Assembly (NCBI RefSeq): GCF_051903065.1 | Contig: NZ_CP178438.1 | Source: Escherichia coli | Lineage (GTDB): Bacteria; Pseudomonadota; Gammaproteobacteria; Enterobacterales; Enterobacteriaceae | Reading direction: 5' to 3' (one strand) | Length of the DNA: 64,000 nt | Shown: positions 1 through 29,457 of the stretch, piece by piece | Layout: each line of letters opens with the position of its first letter | Numbering within the stretch: position 1 is the stretch's first letter | Notes under the pieces: generated by a model | What the model was told of the DNA's origin: nothing | What the model saw: the letters and a program-made list of their open reading frames with translations, nothing else | Database searches by the model: none | Position numbers and translations under genes: made by a program

Positions 1-2271
1 ATGGCCGTTAAAGCCTCCGGGCGTTTTGTCCCTCCGTCAGCATTTGCCGCAGGCACCGGTAAGGCGTTTACCGGTGCTTATGCATGGAACGCGCCACGCG
101 AGGCTGTAGGGCGCGAAAGACCTCTTACACGTGACGAGATGCGTCAGGTGCAAGGTGTTTTATCCACGATTAATCGCCTGCCTTACTTTTTGCGTTCGCT
201 GTTTACTTCACGCTATGACTACATCCGGCGCAATAAAAGCCCGGTGCACGGGTTTTATTTTCTCACATCCACTTTTCAGCGTCGTTTATGGCCGCGCATT
301 GAGCGTGTGAATCAGCGCCATGAAATGAACACCGACGCGTCGTTGCTGTTTCTGGCAGAGCGTGACCACTATGCGCGCCTGCCTGGAATGAATGACAAGG
401 AGCTGAAAAAGTTTGCCGCCCGTATTTCATCGCAGCTTTTCATGATGTATGAGGAACTCAGCGATGCCTGGGTGGATGCGCATGGCGAAAAAGAATCGCT
501 GTTTACGGATGAGGCGCAGGCTCACCTCTATGGTCATGTTGCTGGCGCTGCACGTGCTTTCAATATTTCCCCTCTCTACTGGAAAAAATACCGTAAAGGG
601 CAGATGACCACGAGGCAGGCATATTCTGCCATTGCCCGTCTGTTTAACGATGAGTGGTGGACTCATCAGCTTAAAGGCCAGCGTATGCGCTGGCATGAAG
701 CGTTACTGATAGCTGTCGGGGAGGTCAATAAAGACCGTTCTCCTTATGCCAGTAAACACGCCATTCGTGATGTGCGTGCGCGCCGCCAGGCAAATCTGGA
801 ATTTCTTAAATCGTGTGACCTTGAAAACAGGGAAACCGGCGAGCGCATCGACCTTATCAGTAAGGTGATGGGCAGTATTTCTAATCCTGAAATTCGCCGG
901 ATGGAGCTGATGAACACCATTGCCGGTATTGAGCGTTACGCCGCCGCAGAGGGTGATGTGGGGATGTTTATCACGCTGACCGCGCCGTCAAAGTATCACC
1001 CGACTCGTCAGGTCAGAAAAGGCGAAAGTAAAACCGTTCAGCTTAATCACGGCTGGAACGATGAGGCATTTAATCCAAAGGATGCGCAGCGTTATCTCTG
1101 CCGCATCTGGAGCCTGATGCGCACGGCATTCAAGGATAATGATTTACAGGTCTACGGTTTGCGTGTCGTCGAGCCACACCACGACGGAACGCCACACTGG
1201 CATATGATGCTTTTTTGTAATCCACGCCAGCGTAACCAGATTATCGAAATCATGCGTCGCTATGCGCTCAAAGAGGATGGTGACGAAAGAGGAGCCGCGC
1301 GAAACCGTTTTCAGGCAAAGCACCTTAACCGGGGCGGTGCTGCGGGATATATCGCGAAATACATTTCAAAAAATATCGACGGCTATGCACTGGATGGTCA
1401 GCTCGATAACGATACCGGCAGACCGCTGAAAGACACTGCTGCGGCTGTTACCGCATGGGCGTCAACGTGGCGCATCCCACAATTTAAAACGGTTGGACTG
1501 CCGACAATGGGGGCTTACCGTGAACTACGCAAATTGCCTCGCGGCGTCAGTATTGCTGATGAGTTTGACGAACGCGTCGAGGCTGCTCGCGCTGCCGCAG
1601 ACAGTGGTGATTTTGCGTTGTATATCAGCGCGCAGGGTGGGGCAAATGTCCCGCGCGATTGTCAGACTGTCAGGGTTGCCCGTAGCCCGTCGGATGACGT
1701 TAACGAGTACGAGGAAGAAGTCGAGAGAGTGGTCGGCATTTACGCGCCGCATCTCGGCGCGCGTCATATTCATATCACCAGAACGACGGACTGGCGCATT
1801 GTGCCGAAAGTTCCGGTCGTTGAGCCTTTGACTTTAAAAAGCGGAATCGCCGCGCCTCGGAGTCCTGTCAATAACTGTGGAAAGCTCACCGGTGGTGATA
1901 CTTCGTTACCGGCTCCCACACCTTCTGAACACGCCGCAGCAGTGCTTAATCTGGTTGATGACGGTGTTATCGAATGGAATGACCAGGAGGTCGTGAGGGC
2001 GCTCAGAAGCGCATTAAAACACGGCCTGAGAAGACCAAACCGTCAGCAAAGAAACGGAAGTCCGTTAAAACCGCATGAAATAGCGCCATCGGCCAGACTG
2101 ACCAGGTCGGAACGAATGCAAATTACCCGTATCCGTGTTGACCTTGCTCAGAACGGTATCAGGCCGCAGCGATGGGAGATTGAGACGCTGGCGCGTGGCG
2201 CGACCGTAAATTATGGCGGGAAAGGATTCACGTATCCGGTCGCTGATGAGTGGCCGGAATTTGTAGTATAA
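1..2271 (+). CDS. A: P2-type replication initiation endonuclease gpA (rolling-circle, HUH family)
   Basis: 756-aa ORF starting at position 1; N-terminus MAVKASGRFVPPSAF matches my recollection of P2 gpA; HxH-like motif HWHMMLF and Tyr-rich YIAKYISK segment; followed by cos and Q/P as in P2 prophage order. Confidence 0.9.
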   Translation: MAVKASGRFVPPSAFAAGTGKAFTGAYAWNAPREAVGRERPLTRDEMRQVQGVLSTINRLPYFLRSLFTSRYDYIRRNKSPVHGFYFLTSTFQRRLWPRIERVNQRHEMNTDASLLFLAERDHYARLPGMNDKELKKFAARISSQLFMMYEELSDAWVDAHGEKESLFTDEAQAHLYGHVAGAARAFNISPLYWKKYRKGQMTTRQAYSAIARLFNDEWWTHQLKGQRMRWHEALLIAVGEVNKDRSPYASKHAIRDVRARRQANLEFLKSCDLENRETGERIDLISKVMGSISNPEIRRMELMNTIAGIERYAAAEGDVGMFITLTAPSKYHPTRQVRKGESKTVQLNHGWNDEAFNPKDAQRYLCRIWSLMRTAFKDNDLQVYGLRVVEPHHDGTPHWHMMLFCNPRQRNQIIEIMRRYALKEDGDERGAARNRFQAKHLNRGGAAGYIAKYISKNIDGYALDGQLDNDTGRPLKDTAAAVTAWASTWRIPQFKTVGLPTMGAYRELRKLPRGVSIADEFDERVEAARAAADSGDFALYISAQGGANVPRDCQTVRVARSPSDDVNEYEEEVERVVGIYAPHLGARHIHITRTTDWRIVPKVPVVEPLTLKSGIAAPRSPVNNCGKLTGGDTSLPAPTPSEHAAAVLNLVDDGVIEWNDQEVVRALRSALKHGLRRPNRQQRNGSPLKPHEIAPSARLTRSERMQITRIRVDLAQNGIRPQRWEIETLARGATVNYGGKGFTYPVADEWPEFVV

Positions 2272-2510: not shown

Positions 2511-4178
2511 ATGCTGAGAACTTTTACAGGACAAAATTATAAAGCATACGAAAGCTTTAAGTTAGATTTAAAGCCATTGACAATATTGTTAGGTGCAAAT
2601 AGTTGTGGAAAAAGTGCACTAATTAACTCTTTGTTGATGTTTTCTCAGACAGTTGATTCAATGTCATTGTCTGACTCTGCTCTACGGCTGAATGGACCTA
2701 AAGTGGGAATGGGGGAAGCATTAAATATTATAAAAAATAAAGATGACTCCAAAACACTTAACTTTAGCTTTGATTTTTCTGATAATAGCGTAGTTAAAAA
2801 TGGCATTGATACTCTGAGAAGAGAAACTTTAGAATCATTTGCTATGATTATGCGATTCACTATACAGACAGTAAAAAATAATGATGAGTTGGTCGCGAAG
2901 GCCAATAATTTGATAAATGAATCTTTGAATGCTATTGTTAATTTTGATGAGTTTGAGGAGGCTAAATTAAATATTATTGCTGATAAATTGTGCCAGTTGA
3001 TTATGCTTTTTAGAGATGCTGGCAATAATATTATGTTTAGCCGGGCTACCTCAGAAAACTTACGCAGATTTATATATGAATGCCCATTGAAGAGAATCAA
3101 AGATTGCCTAACTAAAGTTGTTTCTATTTCAGGAAATAAATTGTCTGCATCTAAAATAAGTTATGACTTCAGATATGATAAAAATAAAGGTGTGGTAAAG
3201 GTTTCGAGATTTGTTCTTCTAAATAAGAATGATGAAAGAATAGTTGAACTGTTACCCAAAAAGAATAATGTCGTTGTATTGTCGGATGTTATCCCTCAAG
3301 AAGTATTTAGAGGATGTAAGTCTGATATCTTAGAAATCATGAATCCTTATTCTTTGGGGCTATTCCCTGTCAATGAAGGACGTGGTTTTTATGTTTTTTT
3401 TGGAAATTCCTACAACCCTGTTGTTAACTTTTTGTCACATGTTGTTTCTCTGGGAGTATTAATGCTTTCAAAAATGTTTGATGGCGAAAATGTTAATCAT
3501 GTCAGCCCGTTGAGGGCATTTCCTCAGCGTTATTATTTATTAGATAAAACAGTCAATCATGCTCAGTTAAATTCTGCTGATGGCTCTGAGTTGGCGGAGA
3601 TTCTGAAGAAAAATACAAAAATAACAGAAAACATAAACCTTCTTCTCGCTGAATTTAACTTAGCGGTTGATATAGTTAGAGTTAATGACATAATTCATAA
3701 GATAGTTATAAACCAAGATGCTGTTAATTTAGAATTGACAGATGTAGGGTTTGGAATATCACAAGTGTTGCCTGTCTTGGTTCAAGCTTATTTGTCACCA
3801 AAGGGCTCGATTACAATAATAGAACAACCAGAAATACATTTGCATCCTAAAATGCAGGCATGGTTAACTGACGCATTAATTAAAATATCTATGCAAGAAA
3901 AGAAAATTTTTATTATTGAAACACATAGTGATGCATTAGTTAGACGGATTAGATTAAGAATTGTTGATGAATCAAGCGAACTTACTGAGGACCATGTGGC
4001 AATCTATCATCTTGAGCGAGATGAAGAGGGAACATCAACCTTACTAAATAGAGTGGCTGTGAATTCTGATGGAGATATCACATGGCCAAATGAGTTTATG
4101 GATGTTGAGATTCAGGATACAATTAGAATACAGGAATTAAAGATACAAAAAATAATGAACTCAAAGGGAGTTCATTGA
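2511..4178 (+). CDS. ABC/OLD-type (AAA_15/AAA_21-like) ATPase, cargo gene 1 of A-Q hotspot; candidate defence ATPase (AriA/AbiLi/PtuA-like)
   Basis: 555 aa; Walker A GANSCGKS near N-terminus; Walker B/D-loop-like IIEQPEIHLHP and H-loop-like ETHSD near C-terminus with ~400-aa insertion between; very AT-rich; strong RBS AGGAG upstream. Confidence 0.75.
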   Translation: MLRTFTGQNYKAYESFKLDLKPLTILLGANSCGKSALINSLLMFSQTVDSMSLSDSALRLNGPKVGMGEALNIIKNKDDSKTLNFSFDFSDNSVVKNGIDTLRRETLESFAMIMRFTIQTVKNNDELVAKANNLINESLNAIVNFDEFEEAKLNIIADKLCQLIMLFRDAGNNIMFSRATSENLRRFIYECPLKRIKDCLTKVVSISGNKLSASKISYDFRYDKNKGVVKVSRFVLLNKNDERIVELLPKKNNVVVLSDVIPQEVFRGCKSDILEIMNPYSLGLFPVNEGRGFYVFFGNSYNPVVNFLSHVVSLGVLMLSKMFDGENVNHVSPLRAFPQRYYLLDKTVNHAQLNSADGSELAEILKKNTKITENINLLLAEFNLAVDIVRVNDIIHKIVINQDAVNLELTDVGFGISQVLPVLVQAYLSPKGSITIIEQPEIHLHPKMQAWLTDALIKISMQEKKIFIIETHSDALVRRIRLRIVDESSELTEDHVAIYHLERDEEGTSTLLNRVAVNSDGDITWPNEFMDVEIQDTIRIQELKIQKIMNSKGVH

Positions 4179-4179
4179 T

Positions 4180-5181
4180 ATGCTTTGTGCTGTTTGTTTG
4201 TGTCCTGAATTTGTTGCTGCTAATATTTCTGATGTTAAAGTTTTTAGCGGTTTTTTTATTGAAACCATTGTTAATGGTGAAAATGAGTTGATTCTTGATG
4301 CTGATGGAAAAATTCGCTTAGGTTATTTAAAGTCTTGCGGAAACAACAAGGATTCTTTTTTGTTTTTTAAGAAGTGGGAGTCTGAGTTATCTAAAGCTCC
4401 TTCAGGCAAGATATTGCGTACACCAGTGCCGAATAGTTCTGAGGATATTAAGGATATAGTTGTTTGTGCAGTTGCTAATGCAGCCACTACTTTTGATAAG
4501 CATATCGTAGTGTTAGATAATAATAGTTACTCTGGATATATTGATGAATTAATCAGGCAAAGGATTAATTTGTTAAATCTTAATAGTATAAGCTTAATAT
4601 CAAAGGATGGTCGAGTGCAGCGTCCTTTGAATTTTATAAAGTTTGATAGTGATTTATCTTGGGTGCTTCAAAGATTGGGGCGTCGCTCTGCTAAAGGATA
4701 TGGTGAAGATGATTTTAATGATTTTATACGGGATATGTTATTAGCTAAGAATTATGAGGTAAAAGATCAAACTAGAGAGGGAGAGTCTCAATCTGGTAAA
4801 AGTGCGGGTGAATTAGATCTTGTTATTGAAGATAAAGGAAATCTATTTGCTATAATAGAAGCATTGATTTTAAAATCTCTAGATCAAGCTAACATATTAA
4901 AGCATTATTCAAAGCTAATTAGTAACTATAATCCTATTAATGTTAAACGCTTGTTTTTAATTGCTTATTATACTGGTGCAAAATTTGATGCTTGGTGTGA
5001 GAGATACATTGATTATCTAAAAGAGATTACTCCGGTAGATATTGGTGTAGAATCTCATGAGATAGTTGGGATTAAAGAAGTGGAGACTCCATATATAGGT
5101 TTGAGAAAAATTGAACATCATTTTAGATATGCGGGAGAACATTATTTTTGTGTTCATTATGCAGTCAAGATGGCTCGGTGA
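4180..5181 (+). CDS. Partner protein of hotspot ATPase, putative nuclease effector (PD-(D/E)xK-like or TOPRIM/DUF4435-like)
   Basis: 333 aa; ATG 1 nt after upstream TGA (translational coupling); motifs GELDLVIEDKG (D-x3-E-x-K) and IETIV..LDADG (E...DxD); AT-rich. Confidence 0.6.
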   Translation: MLCAVCLCPEFVAANISDVKVFSGFFIETIVNGENELILDADGKIRLGYLKSCGNNKDSFLFFKKWESELSKAPSGKILRTPVPNSSEDIKDIVVCAVANAATTFDKHIVVLDNNSYSGYIDELIRQRINLLNLNSISLISKDGRVQRPLNFIKFDSDLSWVLQRLGRRSAKGYGEDDFNDFIRDMLLAKNYEVKDQTREGESQSGKSAGELDLVIEDKGNLFAIIEALILKSLDQANILKHYSKLISNYNPINVKRLFLIAYYTGAKFDAWCERYIDYLKEITPVDIGVESHEIVGIKEVETPYIGLRKIEHHFRYAGEHYFCVHYAVKMAR

Positions 5182-14243: not shown

Positions 14244-14694
14244 GTTTAAGCGTTTTGAAGACCGGCTGACCGGACTGATTGAATCGCTGTCACCGTCAGG
14301 GCGTCGGCGACTGAGCGCCGAACTGGCGAAACGTCTGCGGCAGAGTCAGCAGCAGCGAATTAAATTACAAAAAGGCCCGGATGGTACGCCGTATGTACCG
14401 AGAAAAAACCAGCCAGTGCGAAATAAGAAAGGCCGGATAAAGCGGGAAATGTTTGTGAAATTACGCACTAACCGGTTTATGAAAGCAACAGGTAGCGAGA
14501 GTGCGGCGGTGGTGGAGTTTGCCAGCGGAGTGCAACGAATTGCGCGAGTACATCAATTAGGGCTTAAGGATAAGCCGGGGCGTAATAGTGCTGTGGTGGA
14601 ATATCCTGTTCGTGAGTTATTTGGTTTTGACAAGGAATCTATACAATTGATAGAAAGGGAGTTATTAGTGATTCTATCGAAAGATGTTATATGA
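14236..14694 (+). CDS. S: Tail completion protein gpS (3' end AT-rich, possibly chimeric)
   Basis: 152 aa; N-terminus MNEFKRFEDRLTGL P2 S-like; last ~35 codons are AT-rich and join the downstream cargo gene. Confidence 0.8.
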   Translation: MNEFKRFEDRLTGLIESLSPSGRRRLSAELAKRLRQSQQQRIKLQKGPDGTPYVPRKNQPVRNKKGRIKREMFVKLRTNRFMKATGSESAAVVEFASGVQRIARVHQLGLKDKPGRNSAVVEYPVRELFGFDKESIQLIERELLVILSKDVI

Positions 14695-15446
14695 GACGGG
14701 TGTTTATGGATGAAAAGTTTACTATTTTGAGAAAAAGAGTAAAGCACTCTCAAAAGAAAGTTATGGATTGTATTATTGCTGACCATAATGCTGATATATG
14801 TGTGTTATGCGGGAGTCCTGACGATATTACTCGTGAGCACATTATTCCTCAGTGGGCCTTTGAGTCAAATGCTGAAAAATCTTTAATTAATAAAAAGAAT
14901 AATCAGTCAACTCATTACATTAAAGCCACTGTACCAGCATGCAGAGTGTGCAATTCTGATTTGCTGGGAGTGTTTGAGTATAACCTGAAGAAATTTCTTA
15001 CGGAAAAGAGGGGAGAGGAGTTAACAGATTATGAGTATGATTGCATCATATGGTGGTTGCAATACATGGGTTTTAAGTTGCAATTAATGGATTTGCGGAA
15101 CCGCTTTCTCAGGTATAAAGGTGGTGATTATATCCCGTTCCTTGCAAACTTCCCGGTTGCAATGTTTTGGGGGAATGTCGATACGACGCCGGGGGATGTC
15201 TTCAGGATTATACGAAAATCGCGACGCAATCTGATGTCGAAATGGAAGGATAAAAAACATAATTCTTTGATGGTTTTTGAAACATCAAACAAGAGTTTTC
15301 ATTTCTTTCATAAGGTTGATGAATTTATTTTTATTGAAATGCCTCTGGTTAAGAAGGCGTTTTTCTTCTTTTTTAATAAAGAATTTGACAGCCATGATTT
15401 AGCTCATGAGGAGTGTATGAAGATTATAGAGAAGTGCTACAACTAA
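14691..15446 (+). CDS. HNH-motif nuclease-like cargo protein between S and V (P2 orf30 position); candidate defence or accessory gene
   Basis: 251 aa; CVLCGSPDDITREHIIPQW ... PACRVCNSD (CxxC...H...CxxCN His-Me finger pattern); strongly AT-rich; start may instead be ATG at 14706. Confidence 0.6.
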   Translation: MRRVFMDEKFTILRKRVKHSQKKVMDCIIADHNADICVLCGSPDDITREHIIPQWAFESNAEKSLINKKNNQSTHYIKATVPACRVCNSDLLGVFEYNLKKFLTEKRGEELTDYEYDCIIWWLQYMGFKLQLMDLRNRFLRYKGGDYIPFLANFPVAMFWGNVDTTPGDVFRIIRKSRRNLMSKWKDKKHNSLMVFETSNKSFHFFHKVDEFIFIEMPLVKKAFFFFFNKEFDSHDLAHEECMKIIEKCYN

Positions 15447-20526: not shown

Positions 20527-21480
20527 ATGGATATACATGCAAAAAGAGTTGGCAGTCCACTTTATAAAATTATTATGTACTTAAATAAGTATGAAGAAGA
20601 TACACTGGAAGACATAAAACTTCAGTTTCTTTTAAAAAATTTAAAAACTCATTTCAAGAAACTGTTTTATATGATTACTTACATTAATAAAATTCAAAAA
20701 GATGCTGAGTTCATCAGAAAACATGATGCAACATCAATTGTCAGCATTAGTGCTATTGAGTATTGCTATTATAAAATCAGCACGATATGGGATATTGCAT
20801 ATCAGATAGCTGATAAATTAATTTTCCCAACTAAAAAAAATGGCAATAAATATGATTACCTTGAAAATCATTTCCAGCAATATGCACAGGAATTTCCAGA
20901 TTTGAATTTAAAATGGTATAAGGACTTTAATAAAATAAGAAATAAGATAGTTCATGGAGGGATAACAGTAAATCCTTATTATGTCAACGATGATAATATT
21001 AAAACAAAGATTTGTTTCCAAGCATATGACTCTGATCTAAACGATCTGATTCAACCTCATATGATGTATTCAAATAGATTCAATAACAATATTAATTTTG
21101 CTGATTACTATTTTACCTTTTATACTCATCTTCTCTATTCATATCTTTTTGATTTTTTTGATTTTGTACTTCTTGAGCTAAACAAAGATAAATCACATGA
21201 TTTAGACAATCTTATTCTTGATGATATACCGCACAAATTGTTTGGTGCTCATCATGAAACATGGTTGTTATCTGATGTTGATCAATTTATGAAAATTACA
21301 AGAGAAATGATTTCCCTACAAATAGCTGATGGTTGTTTAAATAAAATTGAGAAAATACCCTCAAGTGATATTGAACATTTTTTTAACAACTTTCCATTTT
21401 GTCTTATGACAAAGGTTAGCTCCGGAGATTGGGTATTGGTTGAGGATAAAGCGGCTGAAACAAAGTCATCGGACACTTAA
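20527..21480 (+). CDS. HEPN-motif (Rx4H) protein, Abi-like candidate, cargo in the G-FI (Z/fun) hotspot
   Basis: 317 aa; very AT-rich, Lys/Asn/Tyr/Phe-rich; motif RNKIVHGG (R-x4-H); own promoter-like elements. Confidence 0.55.
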   Translation: MDIHAKRVGSPLYKIIMYLNKYEEDTLEDIKLQFLLKNLKTHFKKLFYMITYINKIQKDAEFIRKHDATSIVSISAIEYCYYKISTIWDIAYQIADKLIFPTKKNGNKYDYLENHFQQYAQEFPDLNLKWYKDFNKIRNKIVHGGITVNPYYVNDDNIKTKICFQAYDSDLNDLIQPHMMYSNRFNNNINFADYYFTFYTHLLYSYLFDFFDFVLLELNKDKSHDLDNLILDDIPHKLFGAHHETWLLSDVDQFMKITREMISLQIADGCLNKIEKIPSSDIEHFFNNFPFCLMTKVSSGDWVLVEDKAAETKSSDT

Positions 21481-21774: not shown

Positions 21775-22611
21775 GTGATCGATGACCCACTACCAGAAAA
21801 CTGGCAAGACCTCCAGACAGGGGTCCAACGTATATTCCGTAATGTTGGCTTGTTTGCAGAAGTCGAGGTCGATTTAGAAACCCCGCGTGGCTCGGTGAAT
21901 GTGGATGTTCTTGCTACAGATGTTAGGAGCGTGGACAAAATCAGATACATTGTGGAATGCAAAAACTGGGGTAGTTCTATACCACAGACGGTGGTCCATT
22001 CGTTCACCACGGTAATGCATGAAACCGGGGCTAATATTGGATTTATTATTTCAAAGCACGGGCTTCAGCAGGGTGCTAAACAGTACACTCAAAACACCAA
22101 TATTATTGGGATGACATACCTTGAGTTCCAAAAAAGGTATTTTGAGGCTTGGTGGAATAGATACTTTTGTCCACGTATCGGTGATGCTGCAGACGAACCG
22201 CTTCAGTACGTCGAACCAATCAACTCTAAACGAGATCGCGAATACGCCAAGCTAAGCCTTCAAGCACAAGAGAAGTTCGATCAGTTAAGGCAAGAGAAAG
22301 GTGTATCAGTAGTGGTTCTCTCTATGCTCAATTACAAGTTTATGTCGAAAGCATTAAACACTGGTAACTTGCTGGAAGTCCCAAATAATCTGGATGATTT
22401 TAAGAACAGAGTTCTCTCCCGAATATGTCCTCACATTGAATGGCATTGTGATACGTACAGAGAGCTGCTAGAGCTCATCTTGCAATACTTATCAGTCACA
22501 AAAGCAGAGTTTGATGCAATATTTGGTCGGGCCATCTTTGAACCGCCAAGTAGTATCACGGGGGTTACGGCTGAAGGTCCCCCTTTAGACGATGGTATTT
22601 ATCATCATTAG
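21775..22611 (+). CDS. PD-(D/E)xK restriction-endonuclease-like (Mrr_cat-like) protein, cargo in the G-FI hotspot
   Basis: 278 aa, GTG start; N-terminal VNVDVLATD ... YIVECKNW (D ... E-x-K nuclease signature). Confidence 0.55.
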   Translation: MIDDPLPENWQDLQTGVQRIFRNVGLFAEVEVDLETPRGSVNVDVLATDVRSVDKIRYIVECKNWGSSIPQTVVHSFTTVMHETGANIGFIISKHGLQQGAKQYTQNTNIIGMTYLEFQKRYFEAWWNRYFCPRIGDAADEPLQYVEPINSKRDREYAKLSLQAQEKFDQLRQEKGVSVVVLSMLNYKFMSKALNTGNLLEVPNNLDDFKNRVLSRICPHIEWHCDTYRELLELILQYLSVTKAEFDAIFGRAIFEPPSSITGVTAEGPPLDDGIYHH

Positions 22612-24057: not shown

Positions 24058-24576
24058 ATGGCAATGCCGCGCAAACTCAAGTTAATGAACGTCTTTCTGA
24101 ACGGCTACAGCTATCAGGGCGTTGCAAAGTCCGTCACGCTGCCAAAACTGACCCGTAAGCTCGAAAACTATCGCGGTGCGGGGATGAACGGCAGCGCACC
24201 GGTAGACCTCGGCCTTGATGATGATGCGCTGTCAATGGAGTGGTCGCTCGGGGGCTTCCCGGATTCGGTTATCTGGGAGCTTTACGCCGCAACCGGCGTG
24301 GATGCCGTGCCGATTCGTTTTGCAGGCTCTTACCAGCGCGACGATACCGGCGAAACGGTGGCCGTCGAAGTGGTCATGCGTGGACGTCAGAAAGAAATCG
24401 ACACCGGCGAGGGCAAACAGGGAGAAGACACCGAGTCGAAAATCTCCGTGGTCTGCACCTATTTCCGGCTGACGATGGACGGTAAGGAGCTGGTCGAAAT
24501 CGACACCATCAACATGATTGAGAAGGTGAACGGCGTCGACCGGCTGGAGCAACACCGCCGCAATATCGGCCTGTGA
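24058..24576 (+). CDS. FII: Tail tube protein FII
   Basis: 172 aa, follows sheath. Confidence 0.9.
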   Translation: MAMPRKLKLMNVFLNGYSYQGVAKSVTLPKLTRKLENYRGAGMNGSAPVDLGLDDDALSMEWSLGGFPDSVIWELYAATGVDAVPIRFAGSYQRDDTGETVAVEVVMRGRQKEIDTGEGKQGEDTESKISVVCTYFRLTMDGKELVEIDTINMIEKVNGVDRLEQHRRNIGL

Positions 24577-24632: not shown

Positions 24633-24908
24633 ATGAACAAAGAAAATGTGATTACCCTGGACAATCCGGTCAAGCGTGGTGAGCAGGTTATCGAACAGGT
24701 CACGCTGATGAAACCCAATGCCGGGACGCTGCGCGGTGTCAGTCTGGCTGCGGTCGCGAACTCTGAAGTCGATGCACTGATTAAGGTGCTGCCGCGCATG
24801 ACGGCACCGATGCTGACCGAGCAGGAAGTCGCCGCGCTGGAACTGCCTGACCTTGTGGCGCTGGCCGGTAAGGTGGTCGGTTTTTTGTCGCCGAACTCGG
24901 TGCAGTGA
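24633..24908 (+). CDS. E: Tail assembly chaperone gpE
   Basis: 91 aa; ends just after slippery TTTTTTG. Confidence 0.85.
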   Translation: MNKENVITLDNPVKRGEQVIEQVTLMKPNAGTLRGVSLAAVANSEVDALIKVLPRMTAPMLTEQEVAALELPDLVALAGKVVGFLSPNSVQ

Positions 24909-25060
24909 CGTTTCCGAAAAATCTCTCGGTCGATGACCTGATGGCAGATGTGGCTGTGATATTTCACTGGCCGCCATCAGAACTGTATCCCATGAGCCTG
25001 ACCGAACTCATCACATGGCGCGAAAAGGCGCTCCGGCGAAGCGGAAACACGAATGAGTAA
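24633..25060 (+). CDS. E': Tail assembly chaperone E+E' made by programmed -1 frameshift at TTTTTTG (24881-24887)
   Basis: -1 frame stays open from the slippery site to TAA at 25058-25060, giving ~142 aa; overlaps the T start. Confidence 0.7.
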
Positions 25061-27500
25061 CAATGTAAAATTACAGGTATTGCTCAGGGCTGTTGACCAG
25101 GCATCCCGCCCGTTTAAATCCATCCGTACAGCGAGCAAGTCGCTGTCGGGGGATATCCGGGAAACACAAAAATCACTGCGCGAGCTGAACGGTCAGGCGT
25201 TCCGTATTGAGGGATTTCGCAAGACCAGTGCGCAGCTCGCCGTGACTGGTCATGCACTTGAAAAGGCTCGGCAGGAAGCCGAAGCCCTTGCCACACAGTT
25301 TAAAAACACCGAACGTCCGACCCGTGCTCAGGCGAAAGTGCTGGAATCCGCAAAGCGTGCGGCGGAGGACTTACAGGCGAAATATAACCGCCTGACGGAT
25401 TCCGTTAAGCGCCAGCAGCGGGAACTGGCCGCTGTGGGAATTAATACCCGCAATCTTGCACATGATGAGCAGGGGCTGAAAAACCGTATCAGTGAAACCA
25501 CCGCACAGCTTAACCGTCAGCGCGACGCACTGGCGCGTGTCAGTGCACAACAGGCAAAACTTAACGCAGTAAAACAGCGTTATCAGGCCGGAAAGGAACT
25601 GGCAGGAAATATGGCCTCAGTGGGCGCTGCCGGTGTGGGGATTGCTGCTGCGGGAACGATGGCCGGTGTTAAGCTGCTGATGCCCGGTTATGAGTTTGCG
25701 CAGAAAAACTCAGAATTGCAGGCTGTGCTCGGTGTGGCAAAAGACTCCGCCGAAATGGCCGCATTACGCAAACAGGCGCGCCAGCTCGGCGACAATACCG
25801 CCGCCTCGGCAGATGATGCAGCCGGTGCGCAGATTATTATTGCGAAAGCCGGTGGGGATGTTGATGCCATTCAGGCGGCAACGCCGGTCACGCTGAACAT
25901 GGCGCTGGCGAACCGCCGCACGATGGAAGAAAACGCCGCCCTGCTGATGGGGATGAAATCCGCCTTTCAGCTTTCAAACGATAAGGTCGCTCATATCGGG
26001 GATGTTCTCTCCATGACGATGAACAAAACCGCCGCCGATTTTGACGGCATGAGCGATGCGCTGACCTATGCCGCACCTGTGGCAAAAAATGCCGGTGTCA
26101 GCATTGAAGAAACCGCCGCAATGGTCGGGGCGCTGCATGATGCAAAAATTACAGGCTCAATGGCGGGGACGGGAAGCCGTGCCGTGTTAAGTCGCCTGCA
26201 GGCACCAACGGGAAAAGCATGGGATGCACTCAAAGAGCTTGGCGTGAAAACCTCAGACAGCAAGGGAAACACCCGGCCAATATTTACCATTCTGAAAGAA
26301 ATGCAGGCCAGTTTTGAGAAAAACCGGCTCGGTACTGCCCAGCAGGCTGAATACATGAAAACTATTTTCGGGGAGGAGGCCAGCTCAGCCGCCGCCGTGC
26401 TGATGACTGCCGCCTCAACCGGAAAGCTGGACAAACTGACCGCTGCGTTTAAAGCCTCAGACGGGAAGACTGCCGAGCTGGTAAATATCATGCAGGACAA
26501 CCTCGGCGGTGACTTTAAGGAGTTTCAGTCCGCTTATGAGGCGGTAGGGACAGACCTGTTTGACCAGCAGGAAGGCGCACTGCGTAAGCTCACACAGACG
26601 GCCACAAAGTATGTGTTAAAACTCGACGGCTGGATACAGAAAAACAAATCACTGGCGTCAACCATTGGCATCATTGCCGGTGGCGCGCTGGCGCTTACTG
26701 GCATCATCGGTGCCATTGGTCTTGTAGCCTGGCCGGTTATCACCGGCATCAATGCCATCATCGCTGCAGCAGGCGCAATGGGGGCAATTTTCACGACGGT
26801 TGGCAGTGCCGTTATGACGGCCATCGGGGCGATTAGCTGGCCGGTAGTGGCCGTGGTGGCCGCCATTGTCGCCGGAGCGTTACTTATCCGTAAATACTGG
26901 GAGCCTGTCAGCGCATTCTTTGGCGGTGTGGTTGAAGGGCTGAAAGCGGCATTTGCGCCGGTGGGGGAGCTGTTCACGCCACTGAAACCGGTGTTTGACT
27001 GGCTGGGCGAAAAGTTACAGGCCGCGTGGCAGTGGTTTAAAAACCTGATTGCCCCGGTTAAAGCCACCCAGGACACCCTGAACCGTTGCCGTGACACGGG
27101 CGTCATGTTCGGGCAGGCACTGGCTGACGCGCTGATGCTGCCGCTTAATGCGTTCAACAAACTGCGCAGCGGTATTGACTGGGTACTGGAAAAACTCGGT
27201 GTTATCAACAAAGAGTCAGACACACTTGACCAGACCGCCGCCAGAACTCAAGCCGCCACGTATGGCAGCGTTGGTTATATTCCGGCGACCAGCTCTTATG
27301 CAGGCTATCAGGCTTATCAGCCGGTTACGGCACCGGCTGGCCGCTCTTATGTAGACCAGAGTAAAAACGAATATCACATTAACCTGACGGGTGGTTCTGC
27401 GCCGGGAACACAGCTTGACCGCCAGTTACAGGATGCGCTCGAAAAATACGAGCGGGATAAACGTGCGCGCGCCCGTGCCAGCATGATGCATGACGGTTAA
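25053..27500 (+). CDS. T: Tail tape measure protein gpT
   Basis: 815 aa, coiled-coil N-terminus and Gly/Ala-rich hydrophobic middle region. Confidence 0.9.
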   Translation: MSNNVKLQVLLRAVDQASRPFKSIRTASKSLSGDIRETQKSLRELNGQAFRIEGFRKTSAQLAVTGHALEKARQEAEALATQFKNTERPTRAQAKVLESAKRAAEDLQAKYNRLTDSVKRQQRELAAVGINTRNLAHDEQGLKNRISETTAQLNRQRDALARVSAQQAKLNAVKQRYQAGKELAGNMASVGAAGVGIAAAGTMAGVKLLMPGYEFAQKNSELQAVLGVAKDSAEMAALRKQARQLGDNTAASADDAAGAQIIIAKAGGDVDAIQAATPVTLNMALANRRTMEENAALLMGMKSAFQLSNDKVAHIGDVLSMTMNKTAADFDGMSDALTYAAPVAKNAGVSIEETAAMVGALHDAKITGSMAGTGSRAVLSRLQAPTGKAWDALKELGVKTSDSKGNTRPIFTILKEMQASFEKNRLGTAQQAEYMKTIFGEEASSAAAVLMTAASTGKLDKLTAAFKASDGKTAELVNIMQDNLGGDFKEFQSAYEAVGTDLFDQQEGALRKLTQTATKYVLKLDGWIQKNKSLASTIGIIAGGALALTGIIGAIGLVAWPVITGINAIIAAAGAMGAIFTTVGSAVMTAIGAISWPVVAVVAAIVAGALLIRKYWEPVSAFFGGVVEGLKAAFAPVGELFTPLKPVFDWLGEKLQAAWQWFKNLIAPVKATQDTLNRCRDTGVMFGQALADALMLPLNAFNKLRSGIDWVLEKLGVINKESDTLDQTAARTQAATYGSVGYIPATSSYAGYQAYQPVTAPAGRSYVDQSKNEYHINLTGGSAPGTQLDRQLQDALEKYERDKRARARASMMHDG

Positions 27501-29238: not shown

Positions 29239-29457
29239 ATGTTTCATTGTCCTTTATGCCAGCATGCCGCACATGCGCGTACAAGCCGCTATATCACTGA
29301 CACGACAAAAGAGCGTTATCACCAGTGTCAGAACGTGAATTGCAGCGCCACATTCATCACTTATGAGTCGGTACAGCGATACATCGTGAAGCCGGGAGAA
29401 GTCCACGCCGTAAGACCGCACCCGTTGCCGTCAGGGCAGCAAATTATGTGGATGTAA
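29239..29457 (+). CDS. ogr: Late transcription activator Ogr (zinc finger)
   Basis: 72 aa from MFHCPLCQH; Cys pairs CPLC ... CQNVNC; ORF track's longer upstream start not used. Confidence 0.85.
   Translation: MFHCPLCQHAAHARTSRYITDTTKERYHQCQNVNCSATFITYESVQRYIVKPGEVHAVRPHPLPSGQQIMWM

Follow-up and report, generated by a model that had tools for sequence, protein, structure and literature searches.

Comparative evidence for a P2-type programmed -1 frameshift between the tail chaperone frames E and E' of an Escherichia coli prophage

The E/E' locus of a P2-like prophage

The window, the whole stretch of 64,000 nucleotides that was analysed, is a segment of an E. coli chromosome in which positions 1 to about 29,460 make up the larger part of a P2-like (Peduovirus) prophage, the remainder being host DNA with the genes pflB-focA-ycaO...rpsA-ihfB-msbA-mukF. 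Within the window the prophage begins inside the replication gene A and continues with Q-P-O-N-M-L, the lysis genes and the baseplate and fibre genes. The tail genes then follow in the order FI-FII-E-E'-T-U-D, ahead of ogr, and this arrangement is collinear with that of P2 and of annotated E. coli prophages. At the right end of the prophage, ogr (29239..29457) is followed by host pflB (from 29777, minus strand), and in E. coli LD93-1 a prophage of this type is flanked by pflA and pflB; int and attL, at the left end, lie beyond the window. The 641 bp around the site studied here are 98% identical to phages of the P2 group (74 phage records), and the E/E' region was found in 1586 of 5426 complete E. 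coli genomes.

Gene E is flanked by FII, which encodes the tail tube protein, and by the tape-measure gene T; the locus comprises the following features.

24058..24576, + strand: FII, major tail tube protein of 172 amino acids, from the list of open reading frames (phrog_55 at 3e-76; named 'phage major tail tube protein' by PGAP in homologous E. coli loci)
24633..24908, + strand: gene E, whose zero-frame product gpE of 91 amino acids is a tail assembly chaperone (PF10109 and P2 homology)
24869..24871, + strand: TAA of the -1 frame, 9 nt upstream of the heptamer and the 5' limit for a shift into E' (the -1 frame is open over 24872..25060)
24881..24887, + strand: slippery heptamer T TTT TTG, in X XXY YYZ register with the E frame and homologous to the annotated P2 frameshift site
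24887..25060, + strand: E' extension in the -1 frame, 57 codons and TAA, beginning with a re-reading of G24887 (translation; PF06528 at 2e-22)
24905..25060, + strand: free-standing GTG-started reading frame of 51 amino acids, called 'GpE family phage tail protein' by the annotation pipeline (PGAP features), read here as an annotation artefact of the frameshift
25053..27500, + strand: gene T, tail tape measure protein of 815 amino acids (open reading frame; phrog_28 at 6e-252; P2 T is annotated at the homologous position)

A first-pass annotation of this DNA had proposed a slippery TTTTTTG within E, and we found it on the + strand in the correct register, with the E-frame codons reading GG(T TTT TTG); it is the sole in-frame XXXYYYZ heptamer in E. 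It had been placed 20 nt before the E stop, whereas the actual distance to the TGA (24906..24908) is 18 nt, that is six codons encoding SPNSVQ; in the literature, the figure of 20 nt applies to the stretch between the T-run and the E' GUG (PMC3931495). The open part of the -1 frame extends from position 24872 to the TAA at 25058..25060. Bounded by the upstream TAA of that frame and by the E stop, a shift into E' is confined to the 34 nt of 24872..24905. The 37 nt of 24872..24908 equal the published reach of P2 E', which 'extends 37 nt back into E' (PMC3931495). Joining the two frames as join(24633..24887, 24887..25060) yields a product of exactly 142 amino acids (predicted mass about 15.5 kDa) with the junction ...GFL-VAELG..., and its reading frame shares 8 nt, ATGAGTAA, with the start of T (ATG at 25053). 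The open -1 frame, the product length of about 142 residues and the overlap with the start of T had all been anticipated in the first-pass annotation and agree with our frame translation.

The heptamer as such was rejected as a significant feature, with 30 copies of TTTTTTG in the window compared to 19.8 expected from shuffles. As it is this common, the evidence must rest on register, position and comparison with relatives. With the G-F-L peptide and the local codon usage taken as given, choosing the codons that form the heptamer had P of about 0.007 in the window.

Other parts of the prophage carry genes that distinguish it from its relatives. A two-gene cassette at 2511..5181 (+ strand) occupies the tin/old cargo hotspot between the P2 genes A and Q. 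Its first gene encodes an ABC-type ATPase of 555 amino acids (Pfam AAA_15 at 8e-25, and AAA_21) with PADLOC matches to NsnB at 2e-51, HEC-03B, PDC-M55A and AriA. The second, which starts at 4180 and overlaps the stop of the ATPase gene by 1 nt, encodes a partner of 333 amino acids that matched no Pfam or PADLOC model. The cassette is probably an anti-phage defence system. In LD93-1, the closest E. coli prophage, a different AAA ATPase gene lies on the opposite strand at the A-Q spot. Two further cargo genes (20527..21480 and 21775..22611, + strand) lie between the tail-fibre assembly gene G and the sheath gene FI, the Z/fun hotspot of P2, and encode a protein of 317 amino acids without family match and one of 278 amino acids with an Mrr_cat restriction-endonuclease domain (PF04471, 4e-11); this pair also occurs in LD93-1. 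Between the tail genes S and V, the position of P2 orf30, an open reading frame of 251 amino acids (14691..15446, + strand) overlaps the S stop and gave no match in Pfam or PADLOC; in LD93-1 this place is taken by a different hypothetical gene, encoded on the opposite strand.

Relation to P2 and conservation among relatives

From E through E', the DNA was identical to that of P2 (NC_001895) at 419 of 428 nucleotides. Of the nine differences, seven lie in E, six of them synonymous and one replacing S29 of P2 by N29; the other two, in the E' part, both affect third positions of -1-frame codons. At the protein level, gpE matches its P2 counterpart at 90 of 91 residues, and the 142-residue product differs from the P2 'Tail assembly protein E'' (NP_046780.1/O64312) only at residue 29, its E' part being wholly identical. 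This was the comparison which the first-pass annotation had named as its check, dissimilarity being the outcome that would have spoken against it. When the P2 product was built likewise, as join(19430..19684,19684..19857), an exact-sequence look-up returned precisely NP_046780.1/O64312 with the junction GFL|VAELG. The P2 E/E' mechanism is also borne out by the P2 RefSeq record, which annotates the same join, notes for the joined CDS 'shares amino terminus with gpE; -1 frameshift; essential tail protein', and carries a feature 'site of -1 translational frameshift' at the homologous place.

Both parts of the product belong to known families. Pfam assigned gpE to PF10109 (Phage_TAC_7) at 2.6e-12, above the cut-off, and phrog_103 matched it at 3e-45, while the E' part matched PF06528 (Phage_P2_GpE) at 2e-22 with 78.7 bits against a cut-off of 23. 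No NCBIfam model matched E, E' or E+E'. AlphaFold models were confident for E+E' (pLDDT 90.7) as well as for E alone (91.7), and a predicted helix of residues 71-89 would span the frameshift junction. In these models the N-terminal domain has the TAC fold, and the best PDB match of the predicted E fold was gp13 of HK97 (2OB9).

Conservation was examined in a comparison set of 97 related loci, including 80 IMG/VR loci (77 distinct sequences), which had been collected from a 6-sequence alignment and are mostly close relatives, and 16 diverged relatives at 35-73% identity. The hosts of the latter were Escherichia, Yersinia, Klebsiella, Salmonella, Burkholderia, Ralstonia, Pseudomonas, Stenotrophomonas, Halomonas, Aeromonas, Acidovorax, Arsenophonus, Vibrio and Mannheimia. 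All 16 diverged relatives have an in-frame slip site near the end of E and a -1 frame that stays open through E'. When the 142-residue product was used as a tblastn query, 401 of 418 phage records matched it in two pieces lying in different frames. In the IMG/VR loci the heptamer lies constantly 18 nt upstream of the E stop and reads TTTTTTG in 78 cases and TTTTTTC in 2; in the diverged Peduoviridae it reads TTTTTTG in 12 of 16, with TTTTTTT, TTTTTTC, A AAT TTT and G GGA AAG once each.

The heptamer TTTTTTG is kept even in high-GC hosts (GC3 0.8-0.87), where TTT and TTG are rare codons. When codon choice was evaluated against each locus's own codon usage in 17 diverged lineages, P ranged from 0.0001 to 0.06 per lineage. 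These low values, which include those of high-GC hosts, indicate selection on the nucleotide sequence beyond the Phe-Leu dipeptide. Four lineages have replaced the heptamer: a Mannheimia phage, PHL101, has G GGA AAG (682..688 of its locus, L018), which is the site used in lambda G/T; a P88-like phage has A AAT TTT (L015, 652..658); Vibrio phage MAR has T TTT TTC (L016, 634..640); and Smp131 has T TTT TTT (L008, 637..643). The E' domain is conserved in all four.

We also searched for elements that might stimulate the shift. The RNA downstream of the site in the window folds better than shuffles (MFE z = -2.7) and contains a perfect 8-bp stem, CUGAUGGC/GCCAUCAG, located 51 nt downstream. In 54 distinct relatives, only one pair changed on both sides, the covariation score was below that of 496 of 500 shuffles, and RNAalifold reported 0 compensatory pairs. 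A small hairpin, GCCG...CGGY, lies 3 nt after the heptamer; its sequence falls on the codons for the conserved Ala-Glu-x-Gly, and distant relatives have not retained it. A downstream stimulatory structure was therefore rejected as unsupported for want of covariation, in agreement with a description of the P2 site in which no hairpin follows (PMC3091744). Upstream, a Shine-Dalgarno-like AAGGTGG (24870..24876) lies 4 nt before the heptamer, and its anti-SD pairing of -8.9 kcal/mol is within the top 6% of windows in E. Permutation of synonymous codons gave p = 0.35 for this element here and p = 0.24 over 17 lineages combined; its strength is accounted for by the encoded peptide, and we lean against its being a selected stimulator. 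Rfam gave no match at gathering thresholds in the whole window and only chance-level hits near the site, none of them a frameshift element. In summary, no cis-acting stimulator of the frameshift is supported.

Mechanism and alternative explanations

We consider it almost certain that the site is the E/E+E' programmed -1 ribosomal frameshift of a P2-like prophage. Most ribosomes translating E would halt at the TGA at 24906..24908 and release gpE of 91 amino acids. A minority would slip by -1 on T TTT TTG, with tRNA-Phe re-pairing from UUU to UUU and tRNA-Leu from UUG to UUU, and would then read GUC GCC GAA... up to the TAA at 25058..25060, producing E+E' of 142 amino acids. A fixed slip frequency would set the ratio of short to long form. 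Tandem slippage of this kind predicts a tryptic junction peptide VVGFLVAELGAVTFPK with Leu85. That the shift occurs in this prophage, and that E' is essential to it, would be expected by analogy with the P2 literature, the DNA being 98% identical.

Three other ways of accounting for the locus were considered. One is a variant of tandem slippage, in which only the tRNA-Phe in the P site slips while the A site awaits the infrequent UUG codon, giving a GFF-VAELG junction. It is unlikely, though it deserves some weight: UUG is among the minor codons for Leu, both in E. coli and in the high-GC hosts of relatives, and the occurrence of TTTTTTC and TTTTTTT variants means that the seventh base is not strictly fixed. 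Nevertheless, the G at position 7 in 78/80 close and 12/16 distant relatives fits a need for a specific A-site tRNA, and the P2 entry records Leu at the junction, which may reflect a modelling convention rather than a measurement.

A second alternative, transcriptional slippage, would have RNA polymerase add one U on the T6 run in some transcripts, and the same GFF-VAELG junction would result. A homopolymer run is the substrate of such slippage and the product would also have 142 amino acids. In addition, T7 variants at the DNA level encode exactly the GFF-V fusion in three public assemblies. These carry T7 at the slip site (GGTTTTTTTGTCG), at 848..855 in the case of L102 (CP048935.1), the others being L101 and L103 (Logan ERR2029951 and ERR15941394); E and E' there form one continuous open reading frame of 142 amino acids with the junction GFFVAELG (QTN08932.1). 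The existence of these alleles implies that the T-run is slippage-prone, at least in replication or sequencing, and they represent either homopolymer sequencing errors or a genuine +1T mutation, which would eliminate the short gpE and probably make the prophage tail-defective. However, six U/T are shorter than the runs that are efficient for bacterial RNA polymerase (general knowledge; reviewed in PMC5009743), and the deposited P2 product has the ribosomal junction GFL-V. The conserved feature is the full X XXY YYZ heptamer with its final G rather than the T-run, and relatives have the non-homopolymeric G GGA AAG (PHL101) or A AAT TTT (P88) at the same place. The non-homopolymeric heptamers and the conserved seventh base favour the ribosome over the polymerase and leave transcriptional slippage very improbable. 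Either P-site or transcriptional slippage would predict the junction peptide VVGFFVAELGAVTFPK with Phe85; tandem slippage (GFL-V) and the P-site or extra-U routes (both GFF-V) are not separable from sequence.

The remaining alternative, that E' is an independent small gene which starts at the GTG at 24905 and encodes 51 amino acids (predicted 5.7 kDa), the heptamer being incidental, is scarcely tenable: that GTG is present in the window, PGAP places a 156-nt CDS there in E. coli genomes, and the product is catalogued on about 995 contigs, but the GTG is conserved in only 13 of 46 distinct contexts (GTA, ATA, CTA or TTA occupy its position in 33/46, GTA alone in 24/46), 25/46 contexts are without any -1-frame start codon before the Met within the conserved DDLMAD motif, anti-SD pairing is weak and located 3 nt from the GTG, and the P2 record and literature describe E' as lacking a ribosome binding site and being made as an extension of E (PMC3931495). 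Furthermore, the -1-frame residues V-A-E-(L/F)-G, which follow directly on the heptamer and lie upstream of the GTG, are conserved in close and distant relatives with mostly synonymous changes; counted relative to the window, the -1 frame had 42 synonymous and 50 nonsynonymous changes in the 18-nt overlap, the zero frame 15 and 66. The non-conserved GTG, the conserved -1-frame residues and the kept heptamer together exclude independent initiation as a conserved route and place the change of frame at the heptamer.

Since the ATG of T overlaps the E' stop by 8 nt and the Shine-Dalgarno sequence of T is weak, it was also considered whether T might mainly be translated by termination-reinitiation of ribosomes that have shifted into E', the frameshift thereby metering the tape measure. 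If so, the amounts of tape-measure protein and of E+E' would be tied to one slip frequency. The T start (region 25033..25060) showed an anti-SD pairing of -3.5 kcal/mol, the second weakest of 19 starts scored (the late-gene starts and the PGAP E' GTG), compared to -16.4 for U. Overlap or abutment of the E' stop and the T start occurs in 11 of the 16 diverged relatives, the rest having a gap of 13-63 nt, in one case with an annotated ribosome binding site. Overlapping stop/start pairs are common in phage operons generally, and we regard such a coupling as speculative and quite doubtful.

Annotation of E' and comparison with known systems

As the first-pass annotation had warned, automated callers miss the frameshift, and PGAP gives E' as a separate 156-nt, GTG-started CDS in E. 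coli genomes. A free-standing CDS of 51 amino acids was present at all 3 loci inspected by coordinates and, judged by product name, in all 15 matches listed; most phage records likewise annotate E' separately. The 142-residue product of the window was absent from a collection of 15 billion proteins, although its 91- and 51-residue halves each occur on about 1000 contigs (about 995 for the exact E' sequence). The 51-residue reading frame is an annotation artefact of the frameshift and not an independent gene. Because PGAP splits E' off, the true protein is missing from databases for nearly all prophages while a non-existent protein of 51 amino acids is catalogued. The frameshift itself is already known; the site is a further copy of the P2 case characterised in 2002, and biologically there is very little new in it. 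A -1 frameshift in tail chaperones is recognised as near-universal in long-tailed phages. The practical value lies in an annotation fix, as a heptamer kept against codon bias in 17 lineages, a non-conserved GTG and conservation of the -1 frame from the heptamer onwards provide a simple automatic rule.

The closest known system is P2 itself. Its E and E+E' (NP_046781.1 and NP_046780.1) are the same genes as those described here, with identical heptamer and flanks, the same lengths of 91 and 142 amino acids, the same 8-nt overlap with T and the same order FI-FII-E-E'-T-U-D. The present prophage differs from P2 by one amino acid and nine nucleotides in this region, adjoins pflB and carries different cargo genes. 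The E/E+E' frameshift of P2 was reportedly characterised by Christie et al. in 2002, in J Bacteriol 184:6522. Both the frameshift and the essential nature of E' in P2 are stated in three further papers, all citing Christie et al. 2002 (PMC3091744, PMC3931495, PMC5009743).

Homologous proteins with the same two-frame layout are encoded by orf51/orf52 (gene H) of phage 186, by the Burkholderia phages KS5, KS14 and KL3 and by Stenotrophomonas phage Smp131 (PMC3091744, PMC3931495). Phage 186, one of the 12/16 diverged relatives with TTTTTTG, has it at the same alignment column. Other Peduoviridae differ in how much of the zero frame follows the heptamer, 15 to 66 nt, and in that some lineages have replaced the heptamer.

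The sites of E. coli dnaX and of the IS911/IS3 family likewise operate by tandem -1 slippage on X XXY YYZ on the bacterial ribosome. Sites of the dnaX/IS3 type depend on a Shine-Dalgarno-like element 10-14 nt upstream and on a downstream hairpin or pseudoknot. In contrast, the P2-like site has its SD-like element at a spacing of 4 nt and has no conserved stem-loop or pseudoknot 5-9 nt downstream.

Functionally, the nearest parallels are gpG/gpGT of lambda and gp13 of HK97, which occupy the same position between the tube and tape-measure genes as E does here. In the lambda pair, coating of the tape measure falls to the common domain and recruitment of the tube protein to the extension (PMC5009743). 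By analogy, the N-terminal chaperone domain shared by gpE and E+E' would coat the tape-measure protein T, encoded directly downstream, and the rare long form would use its E' domain to recruit the tail tube protein; this assignment of roles to the E and E' domains is drawn from lambda. The confident structural models and the order tube - chaperone - tape measure support the idea that E/E+E' act like gpG/gpGT. P2 builds a contractile tail, unlike lambda, and no sequence similarity to the lambda gpG/gpT families was detectable, with Pfam giving PF10109 and PF06528 only and a PDB sequence search (E up to 1) returning no match. Judged by sequence, E/E+E' is thus an analogue or a very remote homologue of lambda gpG/gpGT and not a family member. 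Lambda slips on G GGA AAG at a ratio of about 1:30, and the shift in P2 has been reported to be 2-3 times more frequent (PMC5009743). The two systems share the same -1 logic, in which an abundant short form and a rare long form have a common N terminus and the stop codon of the long form adjoins the start of the tape-measure gene.
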